A stretch of DNA of 61,379 nt, counting the filler, from Candidatus Aminicenantales bacterium (GTDB taxonomy: Bacteria > Acidobacteriota > Aminicenantia > Aminicenantales > Saccharicenantaceae): assembly GCA_049512315.1 (NCBI GenBank). It is 4 parts of 4 records of this genome, joined end to end, with 100 filler letters (N's around TTAATTAATTAA, not from the genome) between each part and the next. Parts side by side here need not be neighbours in the genome. Positions count along the whole stretch, not along the records: positions 1 to 19,268 come from JBEKXF010000050.1; 3 more parts are not named here. One strand, 5' to 3'. This document shows positions 164 to 19,268 of the stretch, in pieces. The position numbers and the translations under genes are program-made. Every line of letters begins with the position of its first letter. Position 1 is the stretch's first letter. The notes under the pieces were generated by a model. It was not told the origin of the DNA, ran no database searches, and saw only the letters and a list, made by a program, of their open reading frames with translations.

Positions 164-318
164 AGCCCTTTGAGACATTTCTCTTCTCTCTATTTTCATA
201 ACTGCCTCGGCTTCTTGAACCACCCTTCTATCCGCGCCATGATGCGCACCATAACATTCGATTTCGGCTCCTAAACCTAATTCAGAACGCGACCCTCGCG
301 GGCCCGTTAAGGCGGGAC
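164..318 (-). ncRNA. Putative bridge RNA / seekRNA in the IS right end
   Basis: Non-coding region directly after the transposase stop. It contains 7-9 nt matches to both target flanks and a shorter match to the donor junction. RNA boundaries are approximate. Confidence 0.75.
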
Positions 319-1353: not shown

Positions 1354-1728
1354 CCGCGCACCTCCTTAAGAGATTTTGGTCCGACGAGTAATCTAGCACA
1401 GCATTACCCGTCAAGGAGGTGCGTTTCGCTATCATGTTACCTAATTCTGATTAAAGGTGCTTAAGAGGAAAACGTCGTTCATATGGGGGAAACCAGATTT
1501 TCCCCTGGCAGATGCCGATTCCCATAGGTCATTCCTAATCCGTTTGTCGCCTGTTCGAGTCAGGGCAGGGGCATTTTATTTAATTCACTGATTCTGAAAA
1601 TGTCGGGGAGGGGGCAATAGGTCGGTGATCAGTTGCCCTTCAGCCCGGCCAACGGCGACCTCGATTGATTAAAGAGCAGTGGGTCAACTTAAAAAATCAG
1701 CGTTCGTACTGGAGTATTTTTACAAACT

Positions 1729-1995
1729 TCATTTGTTCTGCTGCTCCTCACTGCCTTTTGTGCAGAAATAGAAATTCTTTAGGCCCGATTTGCTCTTAAG
1801 AGGGCAGGTTCCGCAGATACATCCCTTCTCTTTGATGATGCACTTGCTCTTACCCATGATCAGGCAAAAAGCTTTTTCATGAGTTGCGCCTTGCTTGCTG
1901 CAATCTACGTAGTTTGGACAACCTTCACAAATACACAATTTGATTATTTCCGCATTTTGCATCTCAGGTTTTGCTGGCATTTCTTTTTTCATCAT
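1729..1995 (-). CDS. Small Cys-rich metal-binding protein (DUF2769-like)
   Basis: CICEGCP..C..FC..GKSKCI..GCICGTCP..FC pattern. Confidence 0.75.
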   Translation of the reverse strand: MMKKEMPAKPEMQNAEIIKLCICEGCPNYVDCSKQGATHEKAFCLIMGKSKCIIKEKGCICGTCPLKSKSGLKNFYFCTKGSEEQQNK

Positions 1996-2003
1996 TCTAT
2001 CTC

Positions 2004-2933: not shown

Positions 2934-3168
2934 ACTCCCCTCCCTCTTCGACAGCCGGCAAAATCCGGCGCGAAGAAACTAACAACAATGACTCGCAAAA
3001 TAATTTTCTAACCTAAAAAAAGAACCAAATAGGGGAGCGCCTCATCGCCTGTCCGCTCGGCACGAGGCCCCGCTAATTGCAGCGCGACGTCGCAGGCTGG
3101 GCGGCGGCCGAGGCCGCCAGGATAACCGAGAATGCCTTCGAAGCGATGATGACCGCTAGTGCTTTTCC

Positions 3169-3513
3169 TCACGCGGACTTCTCCAAATACTCCTTCAGGG
3201 CGACCGCGTTGTTGTATTTCGTTTCCTTGGCCCCGTAGACGAGCGTCACCGTCCCGCGCTTGGCCTCCGCGAGAAGATCGGCGATTTCCTTCCGACCCTT
3301 CAATTCCCTAAAGTAACGCCGTTTGAATTCGCCCCATTTGTCAGGTTCGTGCCCGAACCATTTTCTCAGGCCGGTCGTGGGGGAGACCTCCTTCGTCCAG
3401 AGGTCGATCTTGGCCTTGTCCTTGGTCAGACCGCGCGGCCAAAGCCTGTCCACCAGCACCCGAAGCCCGTCGCCGGCTTCGGGCTCGTCGTACGCCCTTT
3501 TGATCTTGATCAT
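3169..3513 (-). CDS. DUF488 (YeaO-like) family protein
   Basis: IKRAYD..DGLRVLVDRLWPRG..LRKWFGH..NNAVAL. Confidence 0.92.
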   Translation of the reverse strand: MIKIKRAYDEPEAGDGLRVLVDRLWPRGLTKDKAKIDLWTKEVSPTTGLRKWFGHEPDKWGEFKRRYFRELKGRKEIADLLAEAKRGTVTLVYGAKETKYNNAVALKEYLEKSA

Positions 3514-3525
3514 GGCGCCGTCTCC

Positions 3526-3765
3526 TCAACCGAGGTCCAGAGTCCCGATCTCGGGGATGCGTTCGAGGACTTCCGACCCATGGGGCGCCATGGATTCCAG
3601 GTCCGCCGTCAGGTCCTTTCCGGCCTGATGCAGCCCTTGATGATCGCCGTCCGCCCAGAGGAGGCTCTTCGTAACGTCGTAGATTCTCCCCTTGTAGGCG
3701 ACGAAGGCGGGCTCCCCGTTCTCCCCGTTGTTCTTTGCCAGGTCATCTTGGCTCAAAGTTCTCAT
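3526..3765 (-). CDS. Cytochrome b5-like heme/steroid-binding protein
   Basis: NGENG..AFVAYKGRIYDVT..W..G.H...H.AGKDLT..APHG. Confidence 0.88.
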   Translation of the reverse strand: MRTLSQDDLAKNNGENGEPAFVAYKGRIYDVTKSLLWADGDHQGLHQAGKDLTADLESMAPHGSEVLERIPEIGTLDLG

Positions 3766-4001
3766 GAGATGAGTTTCTTCCCTTCATTGAAGACATGAAT
3801 GCAGGTCACCGGACAGCTTTCGGCGGCCGCGATGTTGCACTTCACGTCGTCCATTTCCAGCTCTTCGTTCTCGCCGACACCGGTCGAGTCGATGAGATGA
3901 GAGAGTCCGTCCCCGGCCATCTCCCAAAATTCGGGACAGATGGCGACGCAATTCTCGCAGGCGATGCACAGGGGCCTTTCGATCTCGACCTTGTAACTCA
4001 T
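3762..4001 (-). CDS. Single-cluster ferredoxin
   Basis: CIACENCVAICP and AAESCPVTCI. ATGA overlap with the next gene. Confidence 0.9.
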   Translation of the reverse strand: MSYKVEIERPLCIACENCVAICPEFWEMAGDGLSHLIDSTGVGENEELEMDDVKCNIAAAESCPVTCIHVFNEGKKLIS

Positions 4002-4027
4002 TTGAGGGCCAGATGTTTATCCCCTGC

Positions 4028-4468
4028 TCAGCCGGTCTTCCTGGCACGCAGAGTGATCGTCGTTCCGGCCAGGGCCCGGGAGACAGGACAGCCCGCCTTG
4101 GCACTTTCGGCCAACGCTTGGAAAGCCTTCTCCTCGATCCCCGGCACGTCCGCCTCGGTGGTCAGGTTCACAGCCGTTATCCTGAAGCCGTCCCCGACCT
4201 TCTCGAGGCCGACCTCGGCCTCCGTCTGGATGCGTTTCGGGGGCGTGCCGGCCTGGGATAGCATCAGCGCGAAGGCCATAGAAAAGCAGCCGGCATGCGC
4301 GGCGGCGAGAAGCTCCTCGGGATTCGTCCCCGGCCCCTGCTCGAACCGGGAGGCGAACGAGTACGGGCCCTCGTAGGCCCCCCGGCCCACTTTCATGCGG
4401 CCCCGTCCGTCCTTGAGCGAGCCTTCCCGTAATCGGAGCGATTGAAATGGTATTCCGGCCCCCGCCAT
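4028..4468 (-). CDS. osmC: OsmC-family peroxiredoxin, N-terminus possibly replaced
   Basis: YSFASRFE..GTNPEELLAAAHAGCFSMA..AKAGCPVSRAL. The first ~13 residues are atypical. Confidence 0.85.
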   Translation of the reverse strand: MAGAGIPFQSLRLREGSLKDGRGRMKVGRGAYEGPYSFASRFEQGPGTNPEELLAAAHAGCFSMAFALMLSQAGTPPKRIQTEAEVGLEKVGDGFRITAVNLTTEADVPGIEEKAFQALAESAKAGCPVSRALAGTTITLRARKTG

Positions 4469-4471
4469 GTG

Positions 4472-6118
4472 TCAAGAACTCAAAGTCCTAAGGGCCCGAG
4501 CTCTTCCTCGATCATCCCCCGGGTTGATCGGAATGCCGAACCCGCCGCCATCGGCGATATATTCCATCATCTCGCGCTCGCAGTCCTCCAACTCTTCCCT
4601 TGCCGCCGACTCCCTTTCGTGCCCGAGGTCCGGGTGCTCGTGCCTGTGGGCGACTAGTCCGGGCGTCGGCTGCCTTGCTACTATTCTTTTGCACACGTGG
4701 TAGATCGCCCCGGCCGCTGCCGAGGCCATGTCGTCATTGGCGTTCTTCGGGTGGTCGATCCTTTCGGCTCCACTGGGCAGCGTCTGGAGTTCGAGCCGCT
4801 TCAGCTGGTCAATCAGCTTTTTGTTGTCCAGAAGGACCACGGCTCCGGCTTGGAGGAGCGCCTTCAGCTTAAGGTAGAACTCCGTCGCGCTGGCCTTGCT
4901 CTGGCTCAGGGCGATTCGGTGCCGCCTGAGTTGGCTCTCTAGCGAGGCGAACGCGTACCTGTCGCCCCAGCACTCGTCGATTCCGTATTCTCGAAGAAGG
5001 CCGGCATATTCGTCGATGACCTGGATGAAGTCGAACGGGGGAACGTTCTCTCGGACAAGGTCTAGATAAACCATTTCGTTGGAGGCGTGGGCGATGGCCA
5101 GCGTCATGCTGTCGGTCTTGCCCGCCGACGCGTCGATGAAGGCAACGTATTTCATGCCCTTTTCAGGCGGTGTTTCTGAGCCCTTGGCCGCGGCCCGGAG
5201 CTTCTCCTCATCGAAGAGCGCCCCAATGTCGTCCCGGAAAACGGCCTCGTATTCGGCCCTGCAGCGTTCGGGGTCCCTTTCCATGTCTCGGGCGATCTTC
5301 CTGTCTGAGAAGGTCGGGTTCAGAAGTTTCGTCGGGGCCTTGAAGACGAGGGTGTCGGCGTCGTCTCGCCCCCAGAACTTTTCATGGAGAACCCAGAGTG
5401 ACCCCGCCTTCCTATTCGGGCTGGAGATTCCTATCAGCCGGCCGCCCGGGATGATCGAGGGCGTCAGGGCCGAAACGAGCTCGTCGACGTTGTCGTTCGG
5501 GAAGAACGCCACCTCGTCGAGGACGACCAGGGCAAGGCGCCAGCCCCTGACCGACCTGAAGTCCGACGCCTTGACCGCGATGTGGGCCCCGTTGGCGAGG
5601 TCGAGCTCGTCGTTCGTCTCGCGCCTGACGAGCCTCTGGAAGGGCTTGAGGAACCGCTTGATGTTGCCGAAGACGATGCCCGCCTGCTCCCGCGTGTCGG
5701 CCAGGCAGAAGATGTTCCACTGTTCGCCCGGGCCGACCTTCTTCTCCCAGCCGCCCAGGGCCGCCTCGTAGGCCGCCACGAAGCCCATCGTCGTGGACTT
5801 CCCGCCCTGCCTCCCGGCGATGATGAAAACCTCCTCGTAGCCCCCGGTCCTGGGGAACATGCGGCCCGTGCAAGTTCGGAAGATTTCGAGCTCGGGCGGG
5901 GTAAGCGGAAGACCGTAGATCGCCTTCAGGCAGACCACCCAGTTCGACCACGTCGCGGGGTCGTGGAACTGCTTCCCGAAGGCCCGCCTGTCGAGCATGG
6001 CCTCGACGATGTTCCCGGGGTGGGTCTTTTCGCTGTGGCGGACGCAGAACAGTTCGCCCCGGAGGGCCTTCATGCCGCAGGGGCGGCCGTCCACGCGGAG
6101 CGCCTGGCATTGGGCCAT
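4472..6118 (-). CDS. Terminase large subunit-like ATPase-nuclease with N-terminal CCCH zinc finger
   Basis: Walker A GRQGGKST, Walker B VVLDEVAF, motif III ISSP, RNase H-like FIDASAG..DS and C-terminal DDMASA. Confidence 0.85.
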   Translation of the reverse strand: MAQCQALRVDGRPCGMKALRGELFCVRHSEKTHPGNIVEAMLDRRAFGKQFHDPATWSNWVVCLKAIYGLPLTPPELEIFRTCTGRMFPRTGGYEEVFIIAGRQGGKSTTMGFVAAYEAALGGWEKKVGPGEQWNIFCLADTREQAGIVFGNIKRFLKPFQRLVRRETNDELDLANGAHIAVKASDFRSVRGWRLALVVLDEVAFFPNDNVDELVSALTPSIIPGGRLIGISSPNRKAGSLWVLHEKFWGRDDADTLVFKAPTKLLNPTFSDRKIARDMERDPERCRAEYEAVFRDDIGALFDEEKLRAAAKGSETPPEKGMKYVAFIDASAGKTDSMTLAIAHASNEMVYLDLVRENVPPFDFIQVIDEYAGLLREYGIDECWGDRYAFASLESQLRRHRIALSQSKASATEFYLKLKALLQAGAVVLLDNKKLIDQLKRLELQTLPSGAERIDHPKNANDDMASAAAGAIYHVCKRIVARQPTPGLVAHRHEHPDLGHERESAAREELEDCEREMMEYIADGGGFGIPINPGDDRGRARALRTLSS

Positions 6119-6126
6119 CGGCGGAC

Positions 6127-6714
6127 TCAGGCCTCCTGGAGACTTGCCCTTACGTCAGTAGGCAAGGCGAGCGGCCGTATCACCCTGGCCTTAACCATCT
6201 CGTCCAGCTTGGCCCTGATCGCCAGGAGGTCCCTCTTCGGCCGCAGTTCCCTGACGGAGACGACCCGCCGTTGCTCCTTCAGATAGCCAGGATGGCAGCC
6301 ATCCTGCATCCTCTCGACGGCTTCCTTGATAATCAGTTTCTTCACCCAAACAAGTGGATCGTCGATGTCCACGGGCGCAAGCCTGGGGACCCCACGATAT
6401 GCCGAGACGCTCTCCTGGTTTATTCTTAGCACTTCGTGCTCGTGGGCCTCGTTCACGATTTCCAGGATCCAGCGGCCTTCCCACGACGGGGGAGGCGCCC
6501 ATTTCGGGTTGACCTTGTGGCTCACGCTGCCGTCCTTCTCGAATACGATCCGGCTGTAGCGGGCATAGCTCGTCGTGGGCGCGATCGAGTGGATCCGCTT
6601 CGTCTCGCCCGGGCCGAGCCTCAGCATCTCCTTCCTGTACTCCAGGACGATCTTTTCCCCGTCGGTCTTGTTGACCAACTCGGTTTCAAACAAGTCATTA
6701 GGGTTTATTTCCAT
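6127..6714 (-). CDS. Hypothetical protein (paralogue of 6861-7385)
   Basis: 195-aa ORF with AGGAG SD. Shares collinear motifs with its neighbour. Confidence 0.8.
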   Translation of the reverse strand: MEINPNDLFETELVNKTDGEKIVLEYRKEMLRLGPGETKRIHSIAPTTSYARYSRIVFEKDGSVSHKVNPKWAPPPSWEGRWILEIVNEAHEHEVLRINQESVSAYRGVPRLAPVDIDDPLVWVKKLIIKEAVERMQDGCHPGYLKEQRRVVSVRELRPKRDLLAIRAKLDEMVKARVIRPLALPTDVRASLQEA

Positions 6715-6860
6715 TTGTTACTCCTAAAAGGGAATGGAGGGCGGGGCGGGAGCACGTTCCGTCAGGAGCAGACCCGGCCGCCCCCGTCCCGCCGCATTCT
6801 TTTGTTGCACCAGGCGATTTGAGAAGAGGAGCAGTTCGAATGAAGCCAGTTTCTGTCCTT

Positions 6861-7385
6861 TCATCTCTCGCTTCCCGCCTTCGCCAGAATCTCGTCAAGC
6901 CTCCTGAGGTCCGCCTCGCCGCGCTCGATCCAGTCGTCCCTGAGGCTCTCCCGCCTATAAGCGTAGCCTCGGAACGTCCTCGACTCGACCCATTCCGCGG
7001 TCACCGCGATGCGGAGCTCCTTGCAGGCGGCGAGCGGGGAGCTGAGCGGGCAGGACACGATGACCGGGATGCCGCGGGGGACATGGACCTCGCCGACGCC
7101 CTCGAGCTCCCTGGTCTCCACGTCCCCGCCGTCCATGTTCCTGAGGACGATGGGCCATTCCCCGAAGGCCGCCTGAGGCATTTCGAAGCCGGGGCGCGGA
7201 GTCAGGACGACGCCGCCGTCGGGCGCCCACTCGACGCGGGAATATCGGCTGTAGAGGGTGCGGGGCGAGACGCTCTCCAGGGTCCTCCTGTTGCCCGGAA
7301 GGATGGCGAAAAGGGGCGGGCCTGTCGTGTCCCAGACCGTGATCGGCCTGCTCGTAGAATTGATAAACTCGGTTTCGTATGTCAT
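6861..7385 (-). CDS. Hypothetical protein (paralogue of 6127-6714)
   Basis: 174-aa ORF with GGAGG SD. Shares collinear motifs with its neighbour. Confidence 0.8.
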   Translation of the reverse strand: MTYETEFINSTSRPITVWDTTGPPLFAILPGNRRTLESVSPRTLYSRYSRVEWAPDGGVVLTPRPGFEMPQAAFGEWPIVLRNMDGGDVETRELEGVGEVHVPRGIPVIVSCPLSSPLAACKELRIAVTAEWVESRTFRGYAYRRESLRDDWIERGEADLRRLDEILAKAGSER

Positions 7386-7587
7386 TTTCGTTCCCTCCGC
7401 ATAGACTAGGGGAAACGGATTCAGTTTCCGGGAGTTTTGGTAAATCGCTGGGGGGAGAGGGGGGCCTAAGGGGAATCGAACCTCTGACCGGAGTCGAAGT
7501 CCATGCGCCGCATGTTCAAATCAAGGCGGGGAGTAGGTCGTTTGTATCGCCAATTCAAGGTAGGTCTGGTGGGTTGATGAGAGAAAA

Positions 7588-10500
7588 TTAGCTGCCTGTC
7601 AGCCCGGCCAGCCGCTTCTTGGCGTCCTCAACCTCGGGCAGGCCGGCATCGGCGTCCTTCCAGAGGTCAAGGAATTTGCGGTAGTTCGTTATGGCCCGCG
7701 CCTTGTCCCCTTGCTGCTCGGCGATTTTGCCTAGCATGTAGAACGCCTTGGCGTAGATATCGCCGGGCCAAACCCTGCCCACTGCCAGCAGCGTGATCTT
7801 CTCGTATTCTTTGCGGGCTTTGTCTAAGGCCCCAGCCCTATAATAAGCCTGGGCCAGGCAATCAAAATAAAGAGCGTGCTCACTACCTACGAAATATTGA
7901 TTAGGAAGGAGAGATATGGCTTCGTTGAAATCATCAACAGCTTTGCTCAGGTTGTTTCTCTTGAGCTCGATTATTCCTTCCACGTTACGGTACATTCTCA
8001 TAAGTTTTTTGTTTAATCCTTTTTCTATCAGGGATCTCAGTTCGACCGCAGCCTGCTGGGCTCTATCTATCTGATTTCTCTCTAGGAATATCATAGCCCT
8101 CCAATAGATACAGCCTCGCTCATGAGCCGAGAAGTCGTTTACAGTGGCAACAGCCCAGGCCTTATCGCATTCTTTCAGGGCCTCTTCATAATTTCCCAAT
8201 TTCAGATGGAGATATGCCAAATATAGATGAAAACGTGATTCATAGGCCCACTGATTGAGCTCCTTCGCCTCATCAATTCCAAGGTCACAATGATTCTTTG
8301 CCACTCCAAATTTTCCCTGAAGCACACATAGAGTGGCCAAGCTATCCCTGCCTCTCAAGTGCACTATCTTTGCTTCTGACTCCAGCAGCGTTTCGAAGTC
8401 TTTTTCGGCCGTACTCAAGTTGCCTTGGCAGAGTGAAATCTGGCCTCTCAACAAGACGCTATCGTTATCACCCGGATTAAGCATGAGTGCCTTTCCCACT
8501 TCAAGGAGGGCAGGGGCGTATTCCCCCTGACAGAGATGGATGAGAGCAAGCTCCTGGCGCATATTGAAATTATCGCCGAAAGTTTTGATGTAGAACTCCT
8601 GAGCTTCTGTCGCTTTTTCGTATTGCCCCTTGGCCATATAATCAGATGCTATATCCGCATAAGGGTATATAGAAGAATCTTTATACTTAATTGCTGCTCC
8701 ACTCCGTTCAATGGCCTTATCCCACTCTTCTAAACCCATATAGAGTTCAGCACCGTTTATATTTCCAATGCGATCATCTGGATAAAGCTGCAGTAGTTTA
8801 TTATAGGTTTCAATAGCTTTGTCGTAGGTTCTTTCTGAGTACCTATAAAAATCACCTTGGATGATATAGCGCTCCCGCTCCGAGACCCGGTCGGACAATT
8901 CGAAGGCTTTTTGACGGTTCTTTTTAGATTCAGAATAATATCCGAACTGATCATAAGCAATAGCTAAGCTCCTGTAGGCCATGGCAAACCCAGGGTCGAT
9001 AGCTATGGCTTTTTCCATCAGCGGTATGCTTTTGCGATACTCATAATTCGTGTGATATCTTCTGGCTTCACTATAATACTTATACGCTTCCGGAGAAGTG
9101 GTTGTGATCTTTCCAACCTCCATATCGTGGTCTGCAGCTATCTGATCCGGCGTGAGGTTCATGTCCGACTTGATTGTCCTGGCCAGCTCATCCACTTTGG
9201 CAAAAATCTCTTTCTCGCCGTTGCATTCAATATTAAGGGGGCTTATGACTTCTCCTGTGCGAGGTTTCTGAAGCGTCAGGGTCATGATGATCGTTTCCCC
9301 GGCTTTCATCAGGCTCCCGCTCAATGTGTAGACAGCCCCTCCTTCGTCGGCCACCTTGACCAGGTCTTCTGTGGAATATTTCTTGGCTTCCTGAAGATTC
9401 AGCCTTCTTAAAATACTGAAGATCCTGTCGCTGCTCAGAACACTGATGAATTTTGATTGGGAGAGCTTTGTAATGAGCAACTCAGTTAGCCCGGTCTTCC
9501 AGGCATCCAGGCTCTTGTCTCCGGAAATGTTTTCAAAGTAGACGATGGCAAGAGAGGGTTTGCCCGAGGGAGGAGGAACGATATGGTGTTTGGGGAGGAA
9601 ACGCCAGATGACCAAGGCAATGAGGGCAAAGGCCGCGACTCCCAGAGCCGGAATCAAGAGCTTCTTTGCCCCAAAGGTCACCGTGATTTGCCTAGAGGTG
9701 AGCGGCTTTCTCTTGGGGATTTCGTGAGCCGTCGTCGGGAGACCCTTTTCTATATTCTCGAGTTCTGATCTCACGTCGTCGGCACTCTGATATCTCTTGC
9801 TCTTGTCCTTCTCCAGGCAGCGAAGGACTAGACGGCTGAGGTCATCCGGAATCTGATCGTTGAACTCTTTGGGATCTTTGGGCTTTTCAGTCTTGTGTTT
9901 CACGGCGATGCTGAGCGGCGTATCGCCTTCGAACGGAGCCCGGCCCGTCAACATCTCGTAAAGAACGATTCCCAGAGAATAAATGTCCGATCGCTGATCC
10001 GCTTCTTTCCCCTCGACCTGCTCCGGGCTCATATATTCTGGCGTCCCGATGACCACACCCTCGCCGGTCAGGCTTTTGCCGTGAAGCGATCTGGCAATCC
10101 CGAAATCCATTATCCGGGCATTGCCCTCCCTGTCGATGATGATGTTGGAGGGTTTGAGATCCCTGTGAATGACTCCCAGCCGATGAGCCTCCGCCAGCCC
10201 CTCGGAGATTTGCTTGGCGATGGCGATTGCTTTCCCGATCGTCAACTGGCCTGTCTGCCTGATCAATCCTCTCAGGTCCTGTCCCGCCACGTATTCCATG
10301 GTGATGAAGTAGGTCCCCTTCTCCTCCCCAAGGTCAAACATGCGGCAGACATTCCTATGGGATATCATCCGGGTCGTTTTCAATTCGTTGCTGAACCGTT
10401 CGATCGTATTCTTATCGGAAGAGATTTCCGGCTTGATAAGCTTCAGGGCGATCTCTGCCTTGATCTTCTTGTCCTCTACCCGGTATACTTTGCCCATCCC

Positions 10501-10698
10501 ACCCCGGCCGAGCTCCTCGATGATCTCGTACCTTCCTGCAATTGTGGTTCCTCTGCTTAACTCATGAACGGGCGTCTGGAGGGTTTCTGTCATGACCGGA
10601 GGGTTAGCCTTGGGCGAAGGTAGCTGGGTGCCACAATCGGCGCAGAACTGCTTGGTTTCTGGATTCTCAGAATGACATTTCGGACACTTGATGGCCAA
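7588..10698 (-). CDS. Zn-ribbon / Hanks-type Ser/Thr kinase / TM / TolB-N-like / TPR receptor kinase, 1036 aa
   Basis: CPKC..CADC, LGRGGMGKVY, ALK, HRDLKPSN, DFG and GTPEYMSPE motifs, one hydrophobic TM segment, then TPR repeats. Confidence 0.95.
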   Translation of the reverse strand: MAIKCPKCHSENPETKQFCADCGTQLPSPKANPPVMTETLQTPVHELSRGTTIAGRYEIIEELGRGGMGKVYRVEDKKIKAEIALKLIKPEISSDKNTIERFSNELKTTRMISHRNVCRMFDLGEEKGTYFITMEYVAGQDLRGLIRQTGQLTIGKAIAIAKQISEGLAEAHRLGVIHRDLKPSNIIIDREGNARIMDFGIARSLHGKSLTGEGVVIGTPEYMSPEQVEGKEADQRSDIYSLGIVLYEMLTGRAPFEGDTPLSIAVKHKTEKPKDPKEFNDQIPDDLSRLVLRCLEKDKSKRYQSADDVRSELENIEKGLPTTAHEIPKRKPLTSRQITVTFGAKKLLIPALGVAAFALIALVIWRFLPKHHIVPPPSGKPSLAIVYFENISGDKSLDAWKTGLTELLITKLSQSKFISVLSSDRIFSILRRLNLQEAKKYSTEDLVKVADEGGAVYTLSGSLMKAGETIIMTLTLQKPRTGEVISPLNIECNGEKEIFAKVDELARTIKSDMNLTPDQIAADHDMEVGKITTTSPEAYKYYSEARRYHTNYEYRKSIPLMEKAIAIDPGFAMAYRSLAIAYDQFGYYSESKKNRQKAFELSDRVSERERYIIQGDFYRYSERTYDKAIETYNKLLQLYPDDRIGNINGAELYMGLEEWDKAIERSGAAIKYKDSSIYPYADIASDYMAKGQYEKATEAQEFYIKTFGDNFNMRQELALIHLCQGEYAPALLEVGKALMLNPGDNDSVLLRGQISLCQGNLSTAEKDFETLLESEAKIVHLRGRDSLATLCVLQGKFGVAKNHCDLGIDEAKELNQWAYESRFHLYLAYLHLKLGNYEEALKECDKAWAVATVNDFSAHERGCIYWRAMIFLERNQIDRAQQAAVELRSLIEKGLNKKLMRMYRNVEGIIELKRNNLSKAVDDFNEAISLLPNQYFVGSEHALYFDCLAQAYYRAGALDKARKEYEKITLLAVGRVWPGDIYAKAFYMLGKIAEQQGDKARAITNYRKFLDLWKDADAGLPEVEDAKKRLAGLTGS

Positions 10699-10796
10699 GC
10701 GAGTTCCCCCTCCTCGAGCCTGGCCTCAGATTAGCAGAGGGATGGGCGGGAAGTCAACCAAAGCGGATTCGAACCCATTCCGATGGGAGTAACAAT

Positions 10797-11663
10797 TTAG
10801 TCCCGGCGAACGTCCCTATTCGCTCTGGCTCCAACGATTTTGCCCGCTTTGCAGCGGACTTCGTCTTCCCGCCTGGCCAGTTCCGCCTCGGCCTCCGCCC
10901 ACAATTCGTCGACCTGGGCCTCGGTCACGGGTTCCGTCGGGGCCTTGCGCTTAAGCATGGAAATGGAAGCCGGAGACAGGCCGAATATCTCGGCCAGCTC
11001 TTTCCCTTCGAAGGTGTCCGTGATGCCGGTCCGCAGGAGCCGCCGGATCAGGATGCGCCTCTGGTCTTTCAGGCTGGGGAGGGTCAGCCTGCGGTCGGCG
11101 TTCTCCAGGGTGACGGCGGCAAAGAAGAGCTCGATGGCCCGGTCGGCGGTCATCCGGCCGGCCTCCACTTCCGCGAAGAGGCGTTTCAAAAAGCGCAGTT
11201 CTTTTGACCCTCGGGCCTCAATCCAGCCCTTGGCCAGGGGAAGGGCCGGGGCTTGCGCTTCGGCGGGCTCTAGGCCCGTCTCGCCGGCCTCCAGCAGGGC
11301 TTCGGGGTTTGCATCTGCGTGCCTTCCGAGCTGAACGCCCTCCGGATAGGCCTCCTCGTTTCCCTCGTTATCTGCTTTGAGCCTGATCTGGCTGGCCCAG
11401 CAGACGGCGGCCTTGTTTTCCTTTAGCCGCCGGTATTTTATGGCCTGGAGGTAGTTCCTCCAGTCGCCCTTGCTCGCGGGCCAGCCGCGCCACCGGCCCG
11501 AGGCGACGAAGTCCTGGATGAGGTCGTCGGCCTCGTAGAGCCCGTCCCTGAGCGTGAGGCAGTCCCTCAAGTCGCGGAGGACCTCGAAGGCCATGACGTT
11601 CATGGCTCGCCTGGCCTCGGGGGACGGTCCCTCGATTGTCATAGGTCTGTTTTGGGTTTCCAT
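10797..11663 (-). CDS. Hypothetical protein with C-terminal helix-turn-helix
   Basis: GKELAEIFGLSPASISMLKRK HTH pattern. Starts 8 nt after the recombinase stop. Confidence 0.65.
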   Translation of the reverse strand: METQNRPMTIEGPSPEARRAMNVMAFEVLRDLRDCLTLRDGLYEADDLIQDFVASGRWRGWPASKGDWRNYLQAIKYRRLKENKAAVCWASQIRLKADNEGNEEAYPEGVQLGRHADANPEALLEAGETGLEPAEAQAPALPLAKGWIEARGSKELRFLKRLFAEVEAGRMTADRAIELFFAAVTLENADRRLTLPSLKDQRRILIRRLLRTGITDTFEGKELAEIFGLSPASISMLKRKAPTEPVTEAQVDELWAEAEAELARREDEVRCKAGKIVGARANRDVRRD

Positions 11664-11671
11664 TTAAATCC

Positions 11672-12283
11672 TCAAAGAAATCTCGCTGACCGCCGTTCCA
11701 TTTCCCTTTCATGTTCGGCGGTGTTCATGTCCGATAAATATCTCTCCGAACTTGCCAAGTTCTTGTGCCTGAGCCACCTGGCGATCTGCACGAGCGAGTC
11801 GCCCTTGGCCGCCATCTGGCTCGCGCAGGTGTGCCGGAGGTCGTGGGGGCTGTGGGGGTTCGCGAGCCCGGCCTTCCCGCAGGTCAGCTGAAACAGCTTC
11901 CACCCCGACTCCTGGGTCATGTGGCCGGTCCTGGGCAGCACCTTTGACGGGAACAGGTGGGGGTTTTCCTTCGCCTCCGGCCGGCCCGCCCTCTCCTTCA
12001 GCCACGCCCTGAGCTTCCTCTCGAGCCTCTCCGGGATGTCGTAGGTCCTCGAGAGCCCGCCCTTCTCCGCCCTGACCGTGATCTGGTGGGCGTCGAGGCC
12101 GACGTCGTCCAGCCGGAGGGAGACGGCCTCGCCGATCCTCATCGCGAAGAAGTACACGAGCGACCAGAGGCAGTCCCACTTCCTCCCGTGCCTCCTGGCC
12201 GCCTTCATGAAGGCCTCGAGCTCTCCGTCGGTGAAGTACCGGACCCGGCCGTTTAGGGCCGTCCCTTTGGGGCGTCCGGCCAT
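11672..12283 (-). CDS. Minimal tyrosine recombinase (catalytic domain only), 203 aa
   Basis: AMRIGE (R), EKGG (K), HDLRH, LRHKN (H), SERY (Y). Confidence 0.92.
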   Translation of the reverse strand: MAGRPKGTALNGRVRYFTDGELEAFMKAARRHGRKWDCLWSLVYFFAMRIGEAVSLRLDDVGLDAHQITVRAEKGGLSRTYDIPERLERKLRAWLKERAGRPEAKENPHLFPSKVLPRTGHMTQESGWKLFQLTCGKAGLANPHSPHDLRHTCASQMAAKGDSLVQIARWLRHKNLASSERYLSDMNTAEHEREMERRSARFL

Positions 12284-12284
12284 C

Positions 12285-12650
12285 CTACTTCCCCTTTTGT
12301 TTGCCGAAGTATTTCAGGTTGTTCGCCTCGAGGATCTTCAGGTCGGCGCGGAATGCCGCATCGCCCTTCCCGGCTTCGTTATTCGCAAGGCCTTGGCACT
12401 CGATGATGAACTCGACCGCCATCTTCCGGTTCCCCTTCGGCGGCTGGCCGGCCCATCGTTCCCGCGCAATGCGCGCGGCGATGCCGGCGATGACTTCGTC
12501 CCCGTGGGACCTGTCGTCCGTCAGGTAGTCGACGGCCTCGGGAAGCGAATCGAGCCCGTGGGCCTCAGCGACCGCCTCGGCACCGGATCTTTTCCCCTCC
12601 TCAGGCTCGGCCTTCGCCTTCGCTTGGGTCTTGACATTGGCTTGTTTCAT
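12285..12650 (-). CDS. Hypothetical protein
   Basis: ATG at 12650 with GAAGGAGG SD. Its stop abuts the recombinase start. Confidence 0.7.
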   Translation of the reverse strand: MKQANVKTQAKAKAEPEEGKRSGAEAVAEAHGLDSLPEAVDYLTDDRSHGDEVIAGIAARIARERWAGQPPKGNRKMAVEFIIECQGLANNEAGKGDAAFRADLKILEANNLKYFGKQKGK

Positions 12651-13146
12651 TCGCGTGCCCTCCTTCAGCACTCGAGAATAGGTATACCGTGAAAAAGTGA
12701 GCTTGCACATAGCCTAACTAAAAAATTTGCAACTCTTGCTTCCTCCCCAGGTATGGCCGGCCTGGGAGGGGGCGCCCAAAATCGGGGCAAAAATTTGCTT
12801 GGGGCACCAAAAGGGCCTTCGGGGCGTCAAAAGACTCGCGCATCGCCCCATACGGCGGCCGCCGGACGGCCCCCGTTCGCCCCAGGTCGCGTCCGGACGG
12901 CCCGGGCAAGCATAGGGCAAGGGCCCGCCCCGCCTTGGGCCCCCTGGGTGATCCGGGGGAGGGGCGTGCGGGCGGGGAGTTATACCCAGGGAAATGTTTT
13001 GATTATGCCTGATTCGGCCATATCGCAGACTCTATTTAATTTGTAGGTTTTACAGGGATCGGCTTGTCTCTTACGGATTTCATTCAGAATTGATTCAAAA
13101 TGGTTCGGCCGGATGTAGACCTTGCAGATAGGTGTTGCCGAGAGAG

Positions 13147-14043
13147 TTACTGCCGCTGTGTTTTAAAAGCGCTGGGGTAAGCTTTAATAAGCCGGCTAGA
13201 ATCATCCCCATCTATTACGCCATAATAAATCGCGGAACCTTCAATTGCCGATTTCGCCCTGGCAAATTCGATCATTTGCTCGACTACCGACTCATGAATT
13301 TGCCCCCAATACTGCACGACAAACACACTTGCGGCACTCTTGAAAAGGCGCTGTATCTGGTCTCCATTCTTTCCCATTTTTTTTGGTGTTAAGATGCCTG
13401 TGGTACCTTTTCCCTTAAATGCAAAAGCTGTCGGCATGCGGCGACTGAGCACGCGCAATCGGGTCGTAAAGAGGTCGTTTCGTTCGCCTCCCCAATCTTG
13501 AAAATCGCCTACCTCGCCCATAATTTTCTTAATGCCTTTCTTGAAACGCTGTTCAGGCATCGGAACATACGCGCCCGGCTCAACACGCATCCCTACAACT
13601 TTGTCGAACGAATCGATATCGTCGATAGTTATGTTGTGGGCAAGAACGCGATTCTGTGCAAAACGAATTTTAATATTACCTTGTTTGTCTACCTTCGGCT
13701 GGGTTTTTGTGGGGAGTTTAGAAAATGCCCGTGGGTTTCTTACATATCTTAGTATTTCGTTCTTCCGGCGCGAGTAAAAACGGTCTTTCTGATAACCCGT
13801 CTGACCGGCTAGCCTGATTTGTTTTACGATTCCATTGTCTGCAAGGACCAATGCTGCGGTTAATACTTGCTTCCTGTCTAACCCGGTAGTTTGGGCAATT
13901 TCATTGACAAACTTAGTGTGCTTTTTGCCCCGGTAAATCGCCTTGAATACTATTAGCCTTTGAGGAGATTTACCTAAGACTTTGACTGCGTGTGCAACTT
14001 GCTCGTTACTATTTGACCGAGCGTCTGAAACGCTGATTGGCAT
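13147..14043 (-). CDS. Winged-HTH plus putative PD-(D/E)XK (Mrr-like) nuclease-fold protein, 298 aa
   Basis: N-terminal VNEIAQTTGLDRKQV..L.DNGIV HTH. C-terminal E..DWGGERNDLF..FAFKG..DQIQRL..IDG pattern. The fold call is inference. Confidence 0.6.
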   Translation of the reverse strand: MPISVSDARSNSNEQVAHAVKVLGKSPQRLIVFKAIYRGKKHTKFVNEIAQTTGLDRKQVLTAALVLADNGIVKQIRLAGQTGYQKDRFYSRRKNEILRYVRNPRAFSKLPTKTQPKVDKQGNIKIRFAQNRVLAHNITIDDIDSFDKVVGMRVEPGAYVPMPEQRFKKGIKKIMGEVGDFQDWGGERNDLFTTRLRVLSRRMPTAFAFKGKGTTGILTPKKMGKNGDQIQRLFKSAASVFVVQYWGQIHESVVEQMIEFARAKSAIEGSAIYYGVIDGDDSSRLIKAYPSAFKTQRQ

Positions 14044-14047
14044 CTAT

Positions 14048-14248
14048 CTATTTTTTTGAAGACCGTTTCACTTTGCGCTTGGCTAACATGCGACTAACAA
14101 CGCTCTCATGAACGCCCAATGCTGAAGCTACGTCTCTGCCCTTGACTCCTGATGTTATGAGTTGGAGGATTAGCAGGCGTTTGATGGCTTCAAGTCCATC
14201 AGCCATTGGATCTCCCTTTGCCTTCTTAGGCTTTCTTTTTGCCGCCAT
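14048..14248 (-). CDS. Small HTH protein
   Basis: GVKGRDVASALGVHESVVSRML; GGAGG SD. Confidence 0.75.
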   Translation of the reverse strand: MAAKRKPKKAKGDPMADGLEAIKRLLILQLITSGVKGRDVASALGVHESVVSRMLAKRKVKRSSKK

Positions 14249-14423
14249 CGCCCTTGCCTCCTTTGGGAATGCCCTTTAAGAGGTCATTCACCCATGCTTT
14301 CTGTTTCCCCACGGTTCTCGCGATTTTATCTTGTGGGGCGCCCATTGAGAATAGTTGAAAGACGAGTATCTTTGTAAGAAGGTTGATGATCTCCTTCTTC
14401 TCTTCGGTTGCTTTCTTTGGCAT
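14226..14423 (-). CDS. Small HTH protein (distant paralogue of 14048-14248)
   Basis: GAPQDKIARTVGKQKAWVNDLL. ATG at 14423 with GGAGG SD. Confidence 0.72.
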   Translation of the reverse strand: MPKKATEEKKEIINLLTKILVFQLFSMGAPQDKIARTVGKQKAWVNDLLKGIPKGGKGDGGKKKA

Positions 14424-14442
14424 TCTTTCCTCCCCCAATATT

Positions 14443-14502
14443 CCTAACTAGATTCTGACCTAACTTATAAATAATCCTAACAAAGTGAAGTTGCTAGTAC
14501 AA
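14443..14502 (-). promoter_or_regulatory. Sigma70-type promoter with three GTTAGG direct repeats (putative operator)
   Basis: TTGTAC (14502-14497), 17 bp, then TAGGAT (14479-14474) preceded by TGn. CCTAAC on + at 14443, 14459 and 14476. Confidence 0.6.
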
Positions 14503-14804
14503 GCCCTTCACAAAGCCAATGAGAAAAAACGGAAATTTCTGCCGTCGATTATTGTGAGGCAAACATCCGCTCAGCGTCCCGCGTTTGAATGGGGAGCGCC
14601 CCCATTTGAACCCGAATGTTCAAGACGGCACCCGGCCCGACCGGCTGCTGACTGGCCGCCGACAAAACCGGGCCAGGGGGGTCTCTTAGCAGTTAGAGGG
14701 CCGTCTGATAGAGAAGGGTAAAGCCCCCTCTAAGGAACTTATTCTCGGCCCGTTTTAGCCGAACTCAAGCGCGGCTGTGCCCTTCCTTGCCCCATGCAAA
14801 GGGG

Positions 14805-14928
14805 AGAAGGTAAGAAAGTAAAAACTTGCTTTCGGGTTCTTCCCCAAAATTCATCTCCTTTTCTACCAGTCAACATGCGACTTTTTGGGCAAGTGTCGGA
14901 AAATACCTTCTTACTTTCTTACTATCTT
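14805..14928. repeat. Inverted octamer iterons, putative replication origin
   Basis: ACCTTCTT/ACTTTCTT/ACTATCTT tandem at 14905-14928 and inverted AGAAGGT-AAGAAAGT at 14805-14819, directly downstream of the primase-helicase. Confidence 0.6.
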
Positions 14929-14937
14929 AGGCTTTCT

Positions 14938-17792
14938 TCAGCTCTTCCTCCCCTCCCTAGGCCATATATCCAGCCAATAGTCCTTGCCGTTTTCTTGCAA
15001 CCCCCAAGCTTCGAGGCCGGCCTTCTCCACCGTTTCGTTCAGCAGGCACGGCAGGTCCTTCGCCTGGCTGGGGTCCATGCCCAGGGCATCCATCAGTTGC
15101 TCTGCCGAGATAAGGAAATCGTGGTCTTGATCCTCTGTGGGGCCTAGTGAGTATTCCCTCTGGTGGTCGGCGCGCGTGAATATATCCATCGTAAATTCGC
15201 GCGCCAGCTCTCCCTTTATGTTCGCCAGGTGCTTGGCCATGGACATGGGGCTCTTGTAGTACTTCTGGAAGTCCTTCAGCTTCATCTCCTCCGCGTTATC
15301 GACCATAAGCTTGTACAAGTCCTGCGGAGACAGGGATCTTATTCTCTCGCGCTTATCGTAGATGACGTAGCGCAGGATAAGATAGAAGTAGTCGTCCTCG
15401 ACGGCGAACAGGTCCTTCTTCTCGTTCATCTTCTGCATGATCAGGCGGAACAGGAACTTGAGGCCCCAGCCGCAAACGGTCCTTCCGAAGCACTCCCGTC
15501 TGCCACCCGCGAGATGCACGTGGGCGGCTCCCAGTCCGGGCCCTGCAGGCGCATGTAATCCTGCTCGGCCCGCAGGATCTTCACCACCGAGTTTAAATTC
15601 ACTAAGGCTTCGGTCATGATTGCCGAACGGCGTTCGAGCAGCGTGCGGACAAGGTAGGCGCGGGGCATGGGATTATCGATCTTCTTCGTGTTGAACAGCA
15701 TCAGCCGGCTCACGAAGTCGTCCCGCTTGAACTTCGGCTCCCGCGAAGTGATGGCGATGAAGCAGTGGGGCGTGGCCCGGACGACATCGATGTCCGTGTA
15801 AAGCTTCCTCTTCTCCACGGTCCCGCCGGTGGCCGCCACGCAGAGCACGTTCAGGACGTCGGCCTCGATGTGCTTGTCGAGGTTGTCGAAAACGACGTAG
15901 TGGTTGCGCACCAGCACCGTCTTGAGGTCCTCGGCCGTGCCCGGCTCGTGGCGGCTCTCGAACCTGTCCCCGAAGAAGATCTTCCCAATCGAGGTCGCGA
16001 TGAAGCTCTTGCCGCTCTCTTTTTGGCCGACGAAGCAGGCGATCGGCTTGTCCCTCATGATGGATTCGAAGAACAGGGAATAGAAGACGATGACGAGCAG
16101 GAACTTCTGCTCCTCCGGGCATAGGGGGTTTTCCTGGTCCTCCGTGAACGAGGCTCGGTCGATGAGGAACTGCTTCAGCAGGCTGCCGTCGCGGCAGAAG
16201 CGTTCGAGCGATAGTCCGAGGCGGCTTGACGAGGGAAACGTTATCTTCGTTCCGCCGACTTCGATGGCCGCCTCGGGCCTGAACGCCTCGAAATAGTTGA
16301 CCGCCTTCTGCTCCGGGTCGAAAGCGAACGGCGCGAGCGTCGGGTCGTATTCGAAGAACACCCCGTCGACGCCGTTCATGTAGCGCTCGACCTTTTCTCC
16401 GTCGAGCCGGTAGACGCCGTTATCATGGTCGCTGATGTACAGGACGAGCTTCTCGGGGTCCCAGTAGGCGAACCGGCGAGGCGTCACCTTCTCCCGCAGC
16501 TTCCAGTTGATGACGGTCTTGATCTCGTCCCGGATCTCGCAGAAGTCCCGCTCAGGGACGCTGTACCGGTTCCTCACGTAAGTGTAGAAATCGGTGCCGT
16601 CGACGCCCATCAGGATCTTCTCCTCGTTGTCGAAGAAGTAGTACAGGTCCTGTTCTCCGTCCTTGAACCCCCTCCCTGCGGCGTTCTCGCTCAGAAGGAG
16701 GTCGGTCGTCACGAAGCGCAGGATCGCCTTCCGCTTTTCATCGGCGGTGAGCCCCTTCTCCCGCCTGATTTCCGAGATGCGGCGCGACCCGGGGGCCTCT
16801 TCCTTGCTCCTCTGCTCGATGTAGGCCAGCCCCTTCCGAACGTCCCATTGCAGGTCGGCCTCGCCTGACGCCATGATCCGGTCCGAGCACCCGAGGAAGG
16901 GGTTGAAAAACACGCTCTTGATCGTCTCGTAGTCGTACCCGCCCGCGGCCAGGGAGCAGATGATTGACATGTCCCTCCCGCTTCGGGTTTTGTCTCCCGC
17001 CTTCGTTTTCAAGAGGGCGCCCGTTAGGATCAGCTTTTTCGTCCTGGACTCGACCTGGAGCCTCTCGACGTCGGCCTTCGCCGCTGCGGCGTCCCTTAGG
17101 CTGACGGTCAGGGTCTTGGTGCCGAAGGCGGGTAGCGGCTCATCGAGTCCGGCGGGCTCCTGGTAGCCGGCGTCCTCGAACCGCTCGAAATCCTCCAGCC
17201 CGTATGCCTGGTCCGTGAGGGCCAGAATCCGGCATGCGATGGGCCCTCCTTCCTTGATGTTCAGGGTGCCAGGAAGCCTGAGGCAGGAGTCGAGGTTCAC
17301 CCTGCTGCGGTCGGCCCCCAGTTCCTTCACGAGCCCGGCAAGGATCCGCTTGAACCGGAACCTCTGTTCACCGGCCAGGCCGATGATCGGTTCGGCTAGT
17401 ACCCAGTAGCAGTGACAACCGTGGCCCGAGTCGACCACGATGGACGGGGCGATTGGGAATCCCTGCACGCGCCGCAGTGCCTCTTCCTTGCCCCCCTCGA
17501 AGTCTTTCCCGTCGACGTCGGCCCACAGGCAGACGATGTCCTTGATGTCGTCTTGTTTCTTGGCTTGGCTGAGGGGCCGGGGGTTCACCCCGAGATAGAC
17601 GTGGCAAGCAGCGTTGCGCTGATTGATTTCGGCCCAATTTTCCTCGCCGACCTCGCCACGGCGGCAGAACTTAGAGACGACGTCTTGGCCGACGAACCTG
17701 AGTTCAACATGGCCATCGTTGTCCTTGAAGTAGTTAGAAAATACGGTCTCGATGAAGCGGTTAGCTTCCAGAAGATTCTTCGTGGTTTCCAT
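14938..17792 (-). pseudogene. RepB-like (AEP) primase fused to helicase-like ATPase, split by a 1-nt frameshift
   Basis: LWADVD, DSGHGCHCYW, LRLPGTLN, Walker A GQKESGKS and VVFDN. Restoring one T between 15497 and 15498 joins the two ORFs as RVADWECFG. Confidence 0.8.
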
Positions 17793-17949
17793 TAGTTTCT
17801 CCCATTAGTTCAAATTTCCGTCCTTGATAGATCTTCCCGTCAAGGGGTTGCCCTGTGCGAAGGTTGTTCACGTAAAGCTGGCGGATGCACAGGAAAGTCA
17901 CGCCATCTTCAGTGATGAGAATTAGTTTGGCTTGATGCTTTGTGTCCAT
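17761..17949 (-). CDS. Hypothetical protein
   Basis: 62-aa ORF with GGAGGT SD, overlapping the primase start. Confidence 0.55.
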   Translation of the reverse strand: MDTKHQAKLILITEDGVTFLCIRQLYVNNLRTGQPLDGKIYQGRKFELMGETNGNHEESSGS

Positions 17950-17962
17950 GACACCTCCCTTT

Positions 17963-18217
17963 TTATTTTTCTTTGAATACCAGGTTGCAAGCCTCGATGC
18001 CTGAGTCTGGGTCGGCCTCTTCCGAGACCACTTGCAGTAGCTCCAGGATTTTGTTGTTGAGCCGGTCTCGCTGTTCGAGACCGCACTGTTTGAAAGCAGC
18101 GCCTATCTCTTCGTGTTTGGCGCTCATCTCGACGAGTTGGGCCTTGACGTTTTCGATGGCCCTCTCCACGTTTGGAGGTTGGAATTCTTCCGAATTCTGG
18201 TCTGAGCGATGATTCAT
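17963..18217 (-). CDS. Hypothetical protein (helical)
   Basis: 84-aa ORF with AAGGAG SD, first gene of the replication operon. Confidence 0.6.
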   Translation of the reverse strand: MNHRSDQNSEEFQPPNVERAIENVKAQLVEMSAKHEEIGAAFKQCGLEQRDRLNNKILELLQVVSEEADPDSGIEACNLVFKEK

Positions 18218-18425
18218 GTCGACTCCTTATAAGTTTATATTTTTATAGGGCAATGGATGCCCTGCGGGTAGACGTCCGGGGTTAGAACTGCGTGGATTCG
18301 ATAGATCAGAGACTGGGTGCTTGGGAGGGAAAGTACTGTTCTAAAATGGCCACAGAAGGCCCGCCAAACCGCAGCACCCGAAACGCAAACCTTTTCGAAG
18401 CCCCTCTTATATTCTAAGAGGGTGT

Positions 18426-18746
18426 AGGGGAGATAAAGATTTAATTATTTCTGAAAAGTGTTTCGGGAACGGTTTTCTCTATTGTGCTTTCTTAAAGTTC
18501 CCCCTTAATGGCGTAAGGGGGATAAGGGGGATTAGGACATCAAAACAAAGTCTTGGGACGCGTCTTTGTTCTTGAAATACCGACCTTTCCAAGCTCCTCA
18601 ATTACAGAGGGGGATAAGGGGGTTAAGATCTAAGAAAAAGGTCTTGAGAGGCGCTTTTGTGGTCCCTCTTGTTCTTTAGGCACGAGTAGGCAGGATTAGG
18701 CAATTTTAGGCGAATTTTGTGACGTACAGGTGACGCGGGTGTGACG
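18426..18746. repeat. ~91-bp degenerate repeats followed by helically phased TAGGC x4 and GTGACG x3
   Basis: AGGGGGATAAGGGGG at 18516 and 18608 (degenerate copy at 18426). TAGGC at 18677/18687/18697/18707. GTGACG at 18719/18730/18741. Confidence 0.75.
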
Positions 18747-19133
18747 CGGTCTGTGCCTGCCGTCCGGGGCCCCCGGGGGTATGGGACCAACGCCGCGATC
18801 GTGCGCGGAAGGGGCGATCGTGACCTCTAAAAATATTCACCATAGTTTTCATTAAAGGGCCCTGTTCTGCTAATACTCCAACGGTCTTACCCTAACTCCC
18901 GACAAGTGATCTATGCACCTGCCAATATGCGACGCCTGGCGAAGCACCTCCCGGGATCTCATCTTTCCGGATTTTTTGGCAATCAACTCATGGAGGCCGG
19001 CCCTTGCCCCTCTTCATCATCCATCCTGTTTTTTATTAATATCTTGATCAGGTCAGGGCACGATCCGGCTTGACGCCGGCGGGAGGATATTCCAGAATGA
19101 GAGGAGGACAAGAGGCGAGGTTCGAGGTCAATA

Positions 19134-19268
19134 ATGCGGATACTGATCATCGAGGACGAAGGCAAGATCGCTGCGTTTCTCAAACGGGGGCTCAAGGAAG
19201 AAGGTTACGCTGTGGATGTGGCTGCCGACGGAGAGCAGGGCTATTTCCTGGCCTCCACCCAGGACTGC
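19134..19268 (+). CDS. OmpR-family response regulator, truncated by contig end
   Basis: MRILIIEDEGKIAAFLKRGLKEEGYAVD. Confidence 0.88.

Follow-up and report, generated by a model that had tools for sequence, protein, structure and literature searches.

To our knowledge, described phage satellites either borrow the packaging motor of a helper phage or carry motor, portal and capsid genes together. SatelliteFinder uses the large terminase subunit (TerL), jointly with portal and head-tail genes, to mark the phage-inducible chromosomal islands that form capsids (cf-PICIs), and phage-inducible chromosomal islands (PICIs) carry the small subunit, TerS (PMC10085698). Most satellites have no motor of their own (10.1101/2024.04.22.590561). 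We analyzed a 61,379-nucleotide stretch of DNA (the window) from a Candidatus Aminicenantales bacterium (GCA_049512315.1). Its first part, contig G000:C50 (window 1-19268, where the contig ends and a gap of N follows), holds a TerL gene in a compact block of genes with no recognizable portal gene. This DNA holds one damaged member of a family of islands that target tRNA genes. The family itself is real and recurs, and it is apparently undescribed: the literature searched gave no account of islands that bear TerL and lack a portal, and the supplements of PMC10085698 and PMC9618062 may list variants. The source genome comprises 3.55 Mb at 96.6% completeness. The three sequencing runs that hold most of the stretch, from which we took the habitat after excluding runs with a small share, are peat metagenomes. 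Close TerL relatives with named records are mostly Candidatus Aminicenantes.

The backbone open reading frames (ORFs) all lie on the minus strand. Read from right to left, two leader genes come first, then the primase-helicase and a low-GC cassette. A small gene, a tyrosine recombinase of 203 aa and a gene of 288 aa follow, and after these the kinase-TPR gene, orfB, orfA and TerL. The TerL gene (4472-6118, 548 aa) matched phrog_2 (E 7e-30) and the Pfam families TerL_ATPase and Terminase_6N above cut-off. Its product contains an N-terminal zinc finger (CxxC..C..H, residues 1-30), the ATPase motifs GRQGGKST (Walker A) and LVVLDE (Walker B), and an RNase H nuclease acidic triad (D329, D336 and D463). 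The AlphaFold model has two domains (pLDDT 87.5) and matched TerL from T4 (gp17, E 5e-20), HK97, Sf6 and D6E. Sequence and model together thus predict a protein with both hallmarks of a large terminase, the Walker A/B motifs and the RNase H triad. A PDB search with the TerL sequence alone returned a chance match only; the same search with a TerL alignment found terminases. An earlier interpretation of this DNA, made from the sequence alone (the sequence-only reading), had proposed the co-orientation of all genes, the TerL and a kinase, and each is borne out. It had also noted that no portal, capsid, tail or lysis gene was recognizable, and we found no match to any of these among the element ORFs (14 searched against Pfam; 13, excluding the kinase, against PHROG), nor to a connector or head-tail adaptor in PHROG. 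An RRM RNA-binding gene is a regular neighbor of TerL in related loci (L032, L036, L052, L061, L065, L068, L081 and L083).

The gene set recurs, in line with the new satellite class that the sequence-only reading had raised. Besides the window copy, the genome encodes five TerL genes at 86-91% identity, all on different contigs, and one at 32%. Among the six close copies, those on contigs C50, C5 and C2 have the whole backbone and those on C72, C59 and C43 are partial; the C5 and C2 islands carry different cargo in the same two slots. TerL matches were present in 21 of the 61 genomes searched. The ratio of nonsynonymous to synonymous substitution rates (dN/dS) for TerL is 0.10-0.15 at a dS of 0.43-0.63 (15 pairs from the six copies), and the catalytic residues (Walker A, Walker B and nuclease aspartates) are conserved among the copies. 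In the window copy TerL is intact, and its last ~15 codons derive from a foreign IS91-type end. Because dN/dS is low at this divergence, we infer that the six copies are old, separately evolving and under selection, and not recent duplicates of one ruin.

Directly upstream of TerL lies orfA (6127-6714, minus strand, 195 aa), a member of a new beta-rich family (F3), and upstream of orfA in turn lies orfB (6861-7385, minus strand, 174 aa). Sequence comparison identified the two as paralogs (26% identity over 141 aa, E 7e-13). The sequence-only reading had described them as orphan paralogs; the paralogy stands, and the orphan status falls, since the family comprises 203 clusters at 50% identity, including tandem fusions. 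Neither protein matched Pfam, PHROG, NCBIfam or PADLOC, and an alignment scan of IMG/VR found no relative of the pair. Of 246 genomes of the order, 12 have family members, and these are spread over six families. The dN/dS values of orfA (0.07-0.15) and orfB (0.20-0.39), like those of TerL and the short recombinase, indicate purifying selection.

The islands of relatives show a common order. They start with a helicase or primase, cargo, a short tyrosine recombinase, an activator, an orfB-like gene and a prohead protease, and end with a small gene, an orfA-like gene, a zinc finger, TerL, the RRM gene and a large serine recombinase (LSR). We counted 13 orfA/B islands in relatives, excluding one 78-aa fragment in G009. 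TerL is found in 11 of the 13, a phrog_207 (T4-gp21-type) protease in 10, an LSR in 10 and a phrog_138 capsid gene in none. The T4-gp21-type protease has been lost in the present genome. Four sister islands (in G021, G164, G188 and G100) contain a phrog_138 gp23-type capsid gene, TerL and the protease, with no orfA/B match. The sequence-only reading had held that portal or capsid genes in homologous elements would mark this copy as a deletion derivative; capsid genes do occur in these four sisters, and no portal was found in any of them.

That orfA and orfB accompany the protease, that none of their islands has a gp23-type capsid gene, that they occur in pairs and tandem fusions and that orfA is modeled confidently (pLDDT 91.5) could also mean that they form a new shell or a portal substitute, the island making its own particle from unrecognized parts with no helper head. 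We consider this quite unlikely. The orfA model, a small beta-sandwich that has a single helix at its end, is unlike the HK97 capsid and the helical portal folds, and a lineage that has lost the protease speaks against it as well. Moreover, orfA/B is not a general portal substitute, since both orfA/B and a portal are absent from the capsid-bearing sisters.

The search for portals extended to phages and to TerL loci of the order. The genome had no match to PF04860, phrog_138, phrog_146, phrog_12 or phrog_10; the phrog_138 and phrog_146 controls were also silent. The only unassigned backbone ORF near portal size is the 288-aa gene, which is sigma-like by ESM Atlas feature matches of 0.92-0.94 to viral helix-turn-helix (HTH)/sigma clusters, a lead only. 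When GTDB and IMG/VR were scanned with the window TerL as a pattern, no relative turned up; a scan with an alignment of related TerLs retrieved 60 IMG/VR and 79 GTDB loci. In the viral loci, the large genes that adjoin TerL often encode portals, which fall into several PHROG families, as judged from 58 neighboring proteins selected among 80 cluster representatives. From the phages with related TerL we built six portal profiles. They matched 30 of the 60 viral loci, which served as the positive control, and 1 of the 79 GTDB loci; among the order's 45 TerL loci (38 in relatives and 7 in this genome) they matched none. In the four phrog_138 islands no portal-sized ORF was found in the DNA examined, that of G100 stopping at a contig end.

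These results bear on the possibility that each copy is a decayed prophage, stripped of portal, head and tail genes after integration. The damage to the window copy, the presence of related TerLs in true phages with portals, and tape-measure or neck genes in some other TerL islands of the order are all in its favor. Set against this, the compact gene order is seen again and again at different tRNA sites across six families, the genes are under purifying selection, no portal was found in any of the 45 loci, and complete islands bounded by attachment (att) sites leave no room for head and tail genes. For the family this explanation is largely refuted, and we regard it as very unlikely. The islands with such structural genes belong to a second type in the order, characterized by a full tyrosine integrase, a DnaB-like helicase and TerL, and sometimes a tape-measure, neck or HK97-type capsid gene. 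A tape-measure-like gene was seen in L030, L039, L097, L098 and L100, one of them with a neck gene, and portal and capsid genes were absent from these five loci. The present genome also has a second TerL island of this PICI-like, capsid-less kind (L045/L046, G000:C1 77-86 kb), with a full tyrosine integrase and a DnaB-like helicase.

We then asked how the element relates to each named satellite family. P4-like satellites are marked by Psu, Sid, Delta and alpha, and no such Pfam or PHROG match was found among the element ORFs. Like cf-PICIs, the islands are integrated, have their own replication module and TerL and contain no tail or lysis genes, and some sister islands have a capsid gene and a protease (PMC10085698). 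They differ in that no island here has a portal, head-tail adaptor or connector and the window lineage has no capsid gene; in the LSR at the far end, the second, short recombinase and the new orfA/B family; and in that the head genes of the closest sisters are T4-type, not HK97-type. Among the cf-PICI markers, terL is present in the element, and no portal, major capsid protein (MCP) or head-tail adaptor or connector was found. The resemblance to PICIs, including the Staphylococcus aureus pathogenicity islands (SaPIs), lies in a backbone of 10-16 kb, a primase-helicase, regulators, defense cargo and packaging that is likely to be helper-dependent; PICIs, however, supply TerS and borrow TerL, whereas the island carries TerL and no known TerS was found in it (PMC10085698). 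Of the markers used for PICIs, the primase-replicase is present in frameshifted form, an integrase at the end of the element is missing, and TerL, which should be absent, is present. By analogy, orfA/B could be the counterpart of the capsid-remodeling pairs of PICIs.

Other satellites share parts of this design. The PICI-like elements (PLEs) of Vibrio cholerae have a serine integrase (PMC9618062), replicate by their own means and encode capsid-directed proteins without a portal (10.1101/2024.04.22.590561). They need the helper TerL, which they manipulate through Gpi, GpsA and GpsB (10.1101/2024.04.22.590561). That dependence, which stands beside capR, nixI and repA among the PLE markers, is not shown by the element, which has its own TerL. 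Tycheposons and marine virion-encapsidated integrative mobile elements (VEIMEs) likewise target tRNA genes, leave partial tRNAs behind and are rich in cargo, and some VEIME groups combine a serine with a tyrosine recombinase; the packaging genes reported in these elements are TerS or MCP, and the helper is presumed to supply their TerL (10.1101/2020.12.28.424599; PMC9618062). The closest analogy in logic is offered by pSSVx and SRCE, satellites of spindle-shaped archaeal viruses that have a virus-type ATPase and no capsid protein; they are archaeal and plasmid-derived with a spindle-virus AAA+ ATPase, and the likeness does not imply homology (10.1101/2025.02.15.638363). Portal-less HK97 'twilight' mini-genomes are small, bear an integrase and have a capsid gene without a portal, and differ in having no terminase (PMC13669383). 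The element would act like a satellite, yet it falls outside each named satellite family. The sequence-only reading had described a TerL-only organization that fits none of PICIs, cf-PICIs and P4. The element indeed fits none of these definitions, nor that of PLEs, and the term TerL-only is too narrow, because most relatives carry a prohead protease, some an MCP, and a small gene occupies the TerS position.

Taken together, we consider it probable that the islands are an undescribed satellite family bringing its own TerL motor to the proheads of a helper phage, as the sequence-only reading had suggested. Recurrence, selection on TerL and portal-less relatives support this, as does the defense-type cargo of siblings, and from these we infer the packaging into helper proheads. 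In such a cycle, helper infection would lead the LSR to excise the island, and the primase-helicase would replicate the excised form. The sigma-like protein would switch on orfB-orfA-TerL. DNA specificity would be given by the zinc finger, encoded by the TerS-position gene in relatives and fused to TerL here, and TerL would cut the DNA and pump it through a borrowed portal. The orfA/B proteins may adapt or remodel the helper head, a role suggested because they accompany the gp21-type protease and are never found together with the gp23-type capsid gene. Finally, the short recombinase might resolve concatemers or close incoming DNA. In relatives the small gene in the TerS position is a zinc finger, and these genes gave a weak match to HGGxSTG, below cut-off. 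Two orfA/B islands contain a TerL of a different type, phrog_979 (L068:10456-11973 and L076:10129-11748); the motor has been swapped there and is therefore exchangeable.

Several points weigh against this interpretation. TerL-portal pairs are usually specific, and function of TerL with a foreign portal is assumed here. Neither particles nor circles, transcripts or a helper phage were observed. No recognized TerS was matched in the element in Pfam, PHROG or NCBIfam, and no fold match points to a function for orfA. In this genome four of the six copies are broken or partial, and 2 of the 13 orfA/B islands of relatives are without a TerL match. The portal searches have bounds of their own: the profiles are narrow, the PHROG run covered only 220 proteins, chosen mostly from the islands of relatives, and of the 45 TerL loci at least 8 sit at the end of a contig.

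Since satellites are known to target packaging (10.1101/2024.04.22.590561), the islands might instead be real mobile units whose TerL acts mainly against phages, jamming or cutting at foreign packaging motors and protecting the host, with spread by ordinary transduction or vesicles. The absence of a portal even in capsid-bearing sisters and the restriction-modification cargo would agree with such interference. It is unlikely in our view: the ATPase and nuclease sites are both conserved, which a decoy would not need, and TerL shares an operon with the protease, with the capsid gene or orfA/B, and with the TerS-position gene. Fold searches touch on a further possibility. With the orfA model, searches of BFVD and the PDB gave no match at E<=0.001, which does not imply a novel fold, and the best hit in the VIA search (Z 6.0) covered residues 3-73 only and was at background level; for orfB, the best ESM Atlas match (0.77) gave no lead. 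The N-domain of orfA weakly resembles small beta-sandwiches found in membrane-associated proteins (Z <=6), and tycheposons occur in vesicles (10.1101/2020.12.28.424599); both would suit a motor co-opted for DNA export without a virion, through vesicles or a membrane channel, with orfA/B as the membrane link. We judge this highly improbable, as such Z-scores are background, the backbone has no conserved membrane gene, and the protease and capsid genes of relatives point to heads.

If satellite packaging by a private TerL is correct, a TerL under strong selection without a portal would imply that TerL-portal specificity can be crossed or adapted, and motor-portal compatibility, a long-standing question, becomes directly testable. 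Current satellite models would miss such islands and miscall them dead prophages. A broader version takes in 17 portal-less, mostly planctomycete loci. Alongside TerL, all 17 have a small TerS-position gene and an unknown gene, while 14 have a short recombinase and 14 an LSR. It is possible, and we propose it tentatively, that there is a satellite class spanning phyla with a private TerL and never a portal, in which the head is tuned by a T4-type capsid protein or by orfA/B, and whose members in this genus are ~40-kb cargo carriers sized by the helper head. FastTree placed the window TerL clade as sister to the planctomycete clade (support 0.99), IQ-TREE did not recover this in a quick search of 63 rows, and the sister relationship was rejected; we treat the planctomycete clade as a parallel lineage. 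Two planctomycete TerL islands (L223 and L227) lie within arrays of 20-24 tRNA genes.

Integration was traced in the relatives and siblings. The sequence-only reading had named a minimal recombinase, which corresponds to the 203-aa tyrosine recombinase (11672-12283, minus strand). This is indeed a protein with the catalytic domain only (Pfam Phage_integrase 5e-25, R-K-H-R-H-Y motifs; dN/dS 0.15-0.16). As the integrase of the family it was rejected, since complete relatives carry an LSR downstream of TerL, and it is likely an accessory resolvase. No perfect spaced inverted repeat was found for it. The LSR is the family integrase and inserts at tRNA 3' ends. In relatives it ends at the 3' end of a tRNA gene on the opposite strand, the tRNAs concerned being those for Arg, Asp, Gln, His, Asn, Leu, Ser and Glu. 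For the C5/C38 sibling we found both an empty site, in G001 and G002 (radical SAM gene, tRNA-Leu(CAG), 381-aa gene), and two junctions with a common core, GTGCG: attL lies on C5, and on C38 attR follows the LSR. The window copy has no such set of junctions. The end of C5 overlaps the start of C38, the join running through a short repeat and a two-copy segment. The same tRNA-Leu(CAG) site is occupied by other family members in G003 and G188. The C2 island ends in an LSR at a tRNA-Arg half; its left core is imperfect, and no empty site was found for it.

Between their att sites, the C2 island (C2:3764-43673) measures 39,909 bp and the C5/C38 island (C5:134156 to C38:11287) 39,875 bp, the latter figure resting on the join through the repeat. 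The two differ by 34 bp, with different cargo and ~20 kb between TerL and LSR, and the near-equal lengths are a lead only. A fixed size of 40 kb was rejected as a rule for the family, the G003 sibling being ~33 kb and other orfA/B islands 14-16 kb. A block of methionine-biosynthesis genes is cargo of one of the two ~39.9-kb islands, and it appears that large blocks of cargo travel with the islands among uncultured bacteria of peat and sediment. For none of C50, C5 and C2 did we find flanking direct repeats of >=13 nt near TerL, because the LSR core is short and the right end distant. The contigs of four runs contained no circle-closing joint of the element, which is no evidence, as contigs drop rare forms.

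The sequence-only reading had placed host-like genes on both flanks within one contig. Neither such flanks nor completeness of the window copy is supported. The window copy has no LSR, the two LSRs of the genome both being accounted for elsewhere, and it lacks the att-end motif that complete siblings have. Upstream, its similarity to the C5 sibling ends at 18218-18367 (minus strand), where that motif is missing. On the other side, the remnant end of an IS91-family transposase (4446-4523, minus strand; 86% to C16:69264-69341) replaces the natural sequence downstream of TerL and stands where siblings share 40-115 nt; on C16 the frame upstream of it matched Pfam Y2_Tnp (6.5e-6). The left flank is island cargo: next to an IS110 gene and the 3' half of a tRNA-Arg (1531-1573), it has a block that shares 91-98% identity with C16. 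The right flank consists of repeats and 323 nt in common with the end of C58, up to the contig end. A dispersed GGGGGATAAGGGGG-type repeat (18380-18660), also present in other genomes of the genus, and an arm (18674-18863) that elsewhere lies just downstream of tRNA 3' ends are both outside the element. The IS110-family transposase occupies window 319-1353, and in one run a joint skips 141-1440, consistent with an empty site.

The primase-helicase (14938-17792, minus strand) is broken by a frameshift near 15497, which leaves ORFs of 783 and 193 aa. The call made in the sequence-only reading is supported by matches of ORF 15441-17792 to phrog_2478 (1e-11) and phrog_47 (5e-6), with the qualification that the gene is not intact; the siblings have intact versions of 954 aa (C5) and 969 aa (C2). 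In each of three runs one contig spans the frameshift site identically, one of these runs being a possible source of the assembly. Because the LSR and att ends are lost and the primase is broken, the window copy is likely unable to move by itself. Upstream of the primase are the two leader genes (62 and 84 aa, 17761-18217, minus strand), which are conserved in siblings. Downstream of it, an AT-rich imperfect inverted repeat (14805-14927; 45 nt, 73% complementary) is a candidate for the origin that the sequence-only reading had listed.

The 288-aa sigma-factor-like/HTH protein (10797-11663, minus strand; dN/dS 0.28-0.33) is likely the late-gene activator. Relatives have a Mor/C-type activator at its position, without sequence similarity; the protein did not align to the Mor-type activator of G166. 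A small backbone gene (12285-12710, minus strand, 121-141 aa) is 87% identical to the C5 copy and has a homolog in G021. Upstream of the recombinase operon, a 30-nt stretch at ~12700-12735 that contains a short inverted repeat is invariant in three copies and is a possible operator or recombination site.

Two slots hold the variable genes. The first is the low-GC accessory cassette (13147-14438, minus strand), with a 298-aa gene and two small HTH genes; siblings have restriction-modification and candidate defense genes at this position. The C2 cargo (L043:8147-12822) includes a double DNA methyltransferase, an HNH nuclease, Vsr and a PDC-M34B candidate defense gene, with a LexA-like and a Cas4-like gene just upstream of the block. 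The second, between the sigma-like gene and orfB, holds the Ser/Thr kinase-TPR gene (7588-10698, minus strand; Pfam) as swappable cargo, and other genes in C5 and C2; in C5 the slot is edged by a 17-nt direct repeat. Its right edge in the window is a degenerate 3' half of tRNA-Arg(CCG) (7464-7503, minus strand; 77% over 43 nt, E 0.048), and window 7398-7503 matches C43:8150-8262, which contains an intact tRNA half. Genome-wide, dozens of tRNA 3' halves lie between cargo genes, mostly of tRNA-Arg(CCG/CCT), for example on C24, C26, C27, C28, C34 and C55. Many of the cargo genes separated in this way are kinase-TPR genes, and the kinase gave 48 tblastn matches in the genome.

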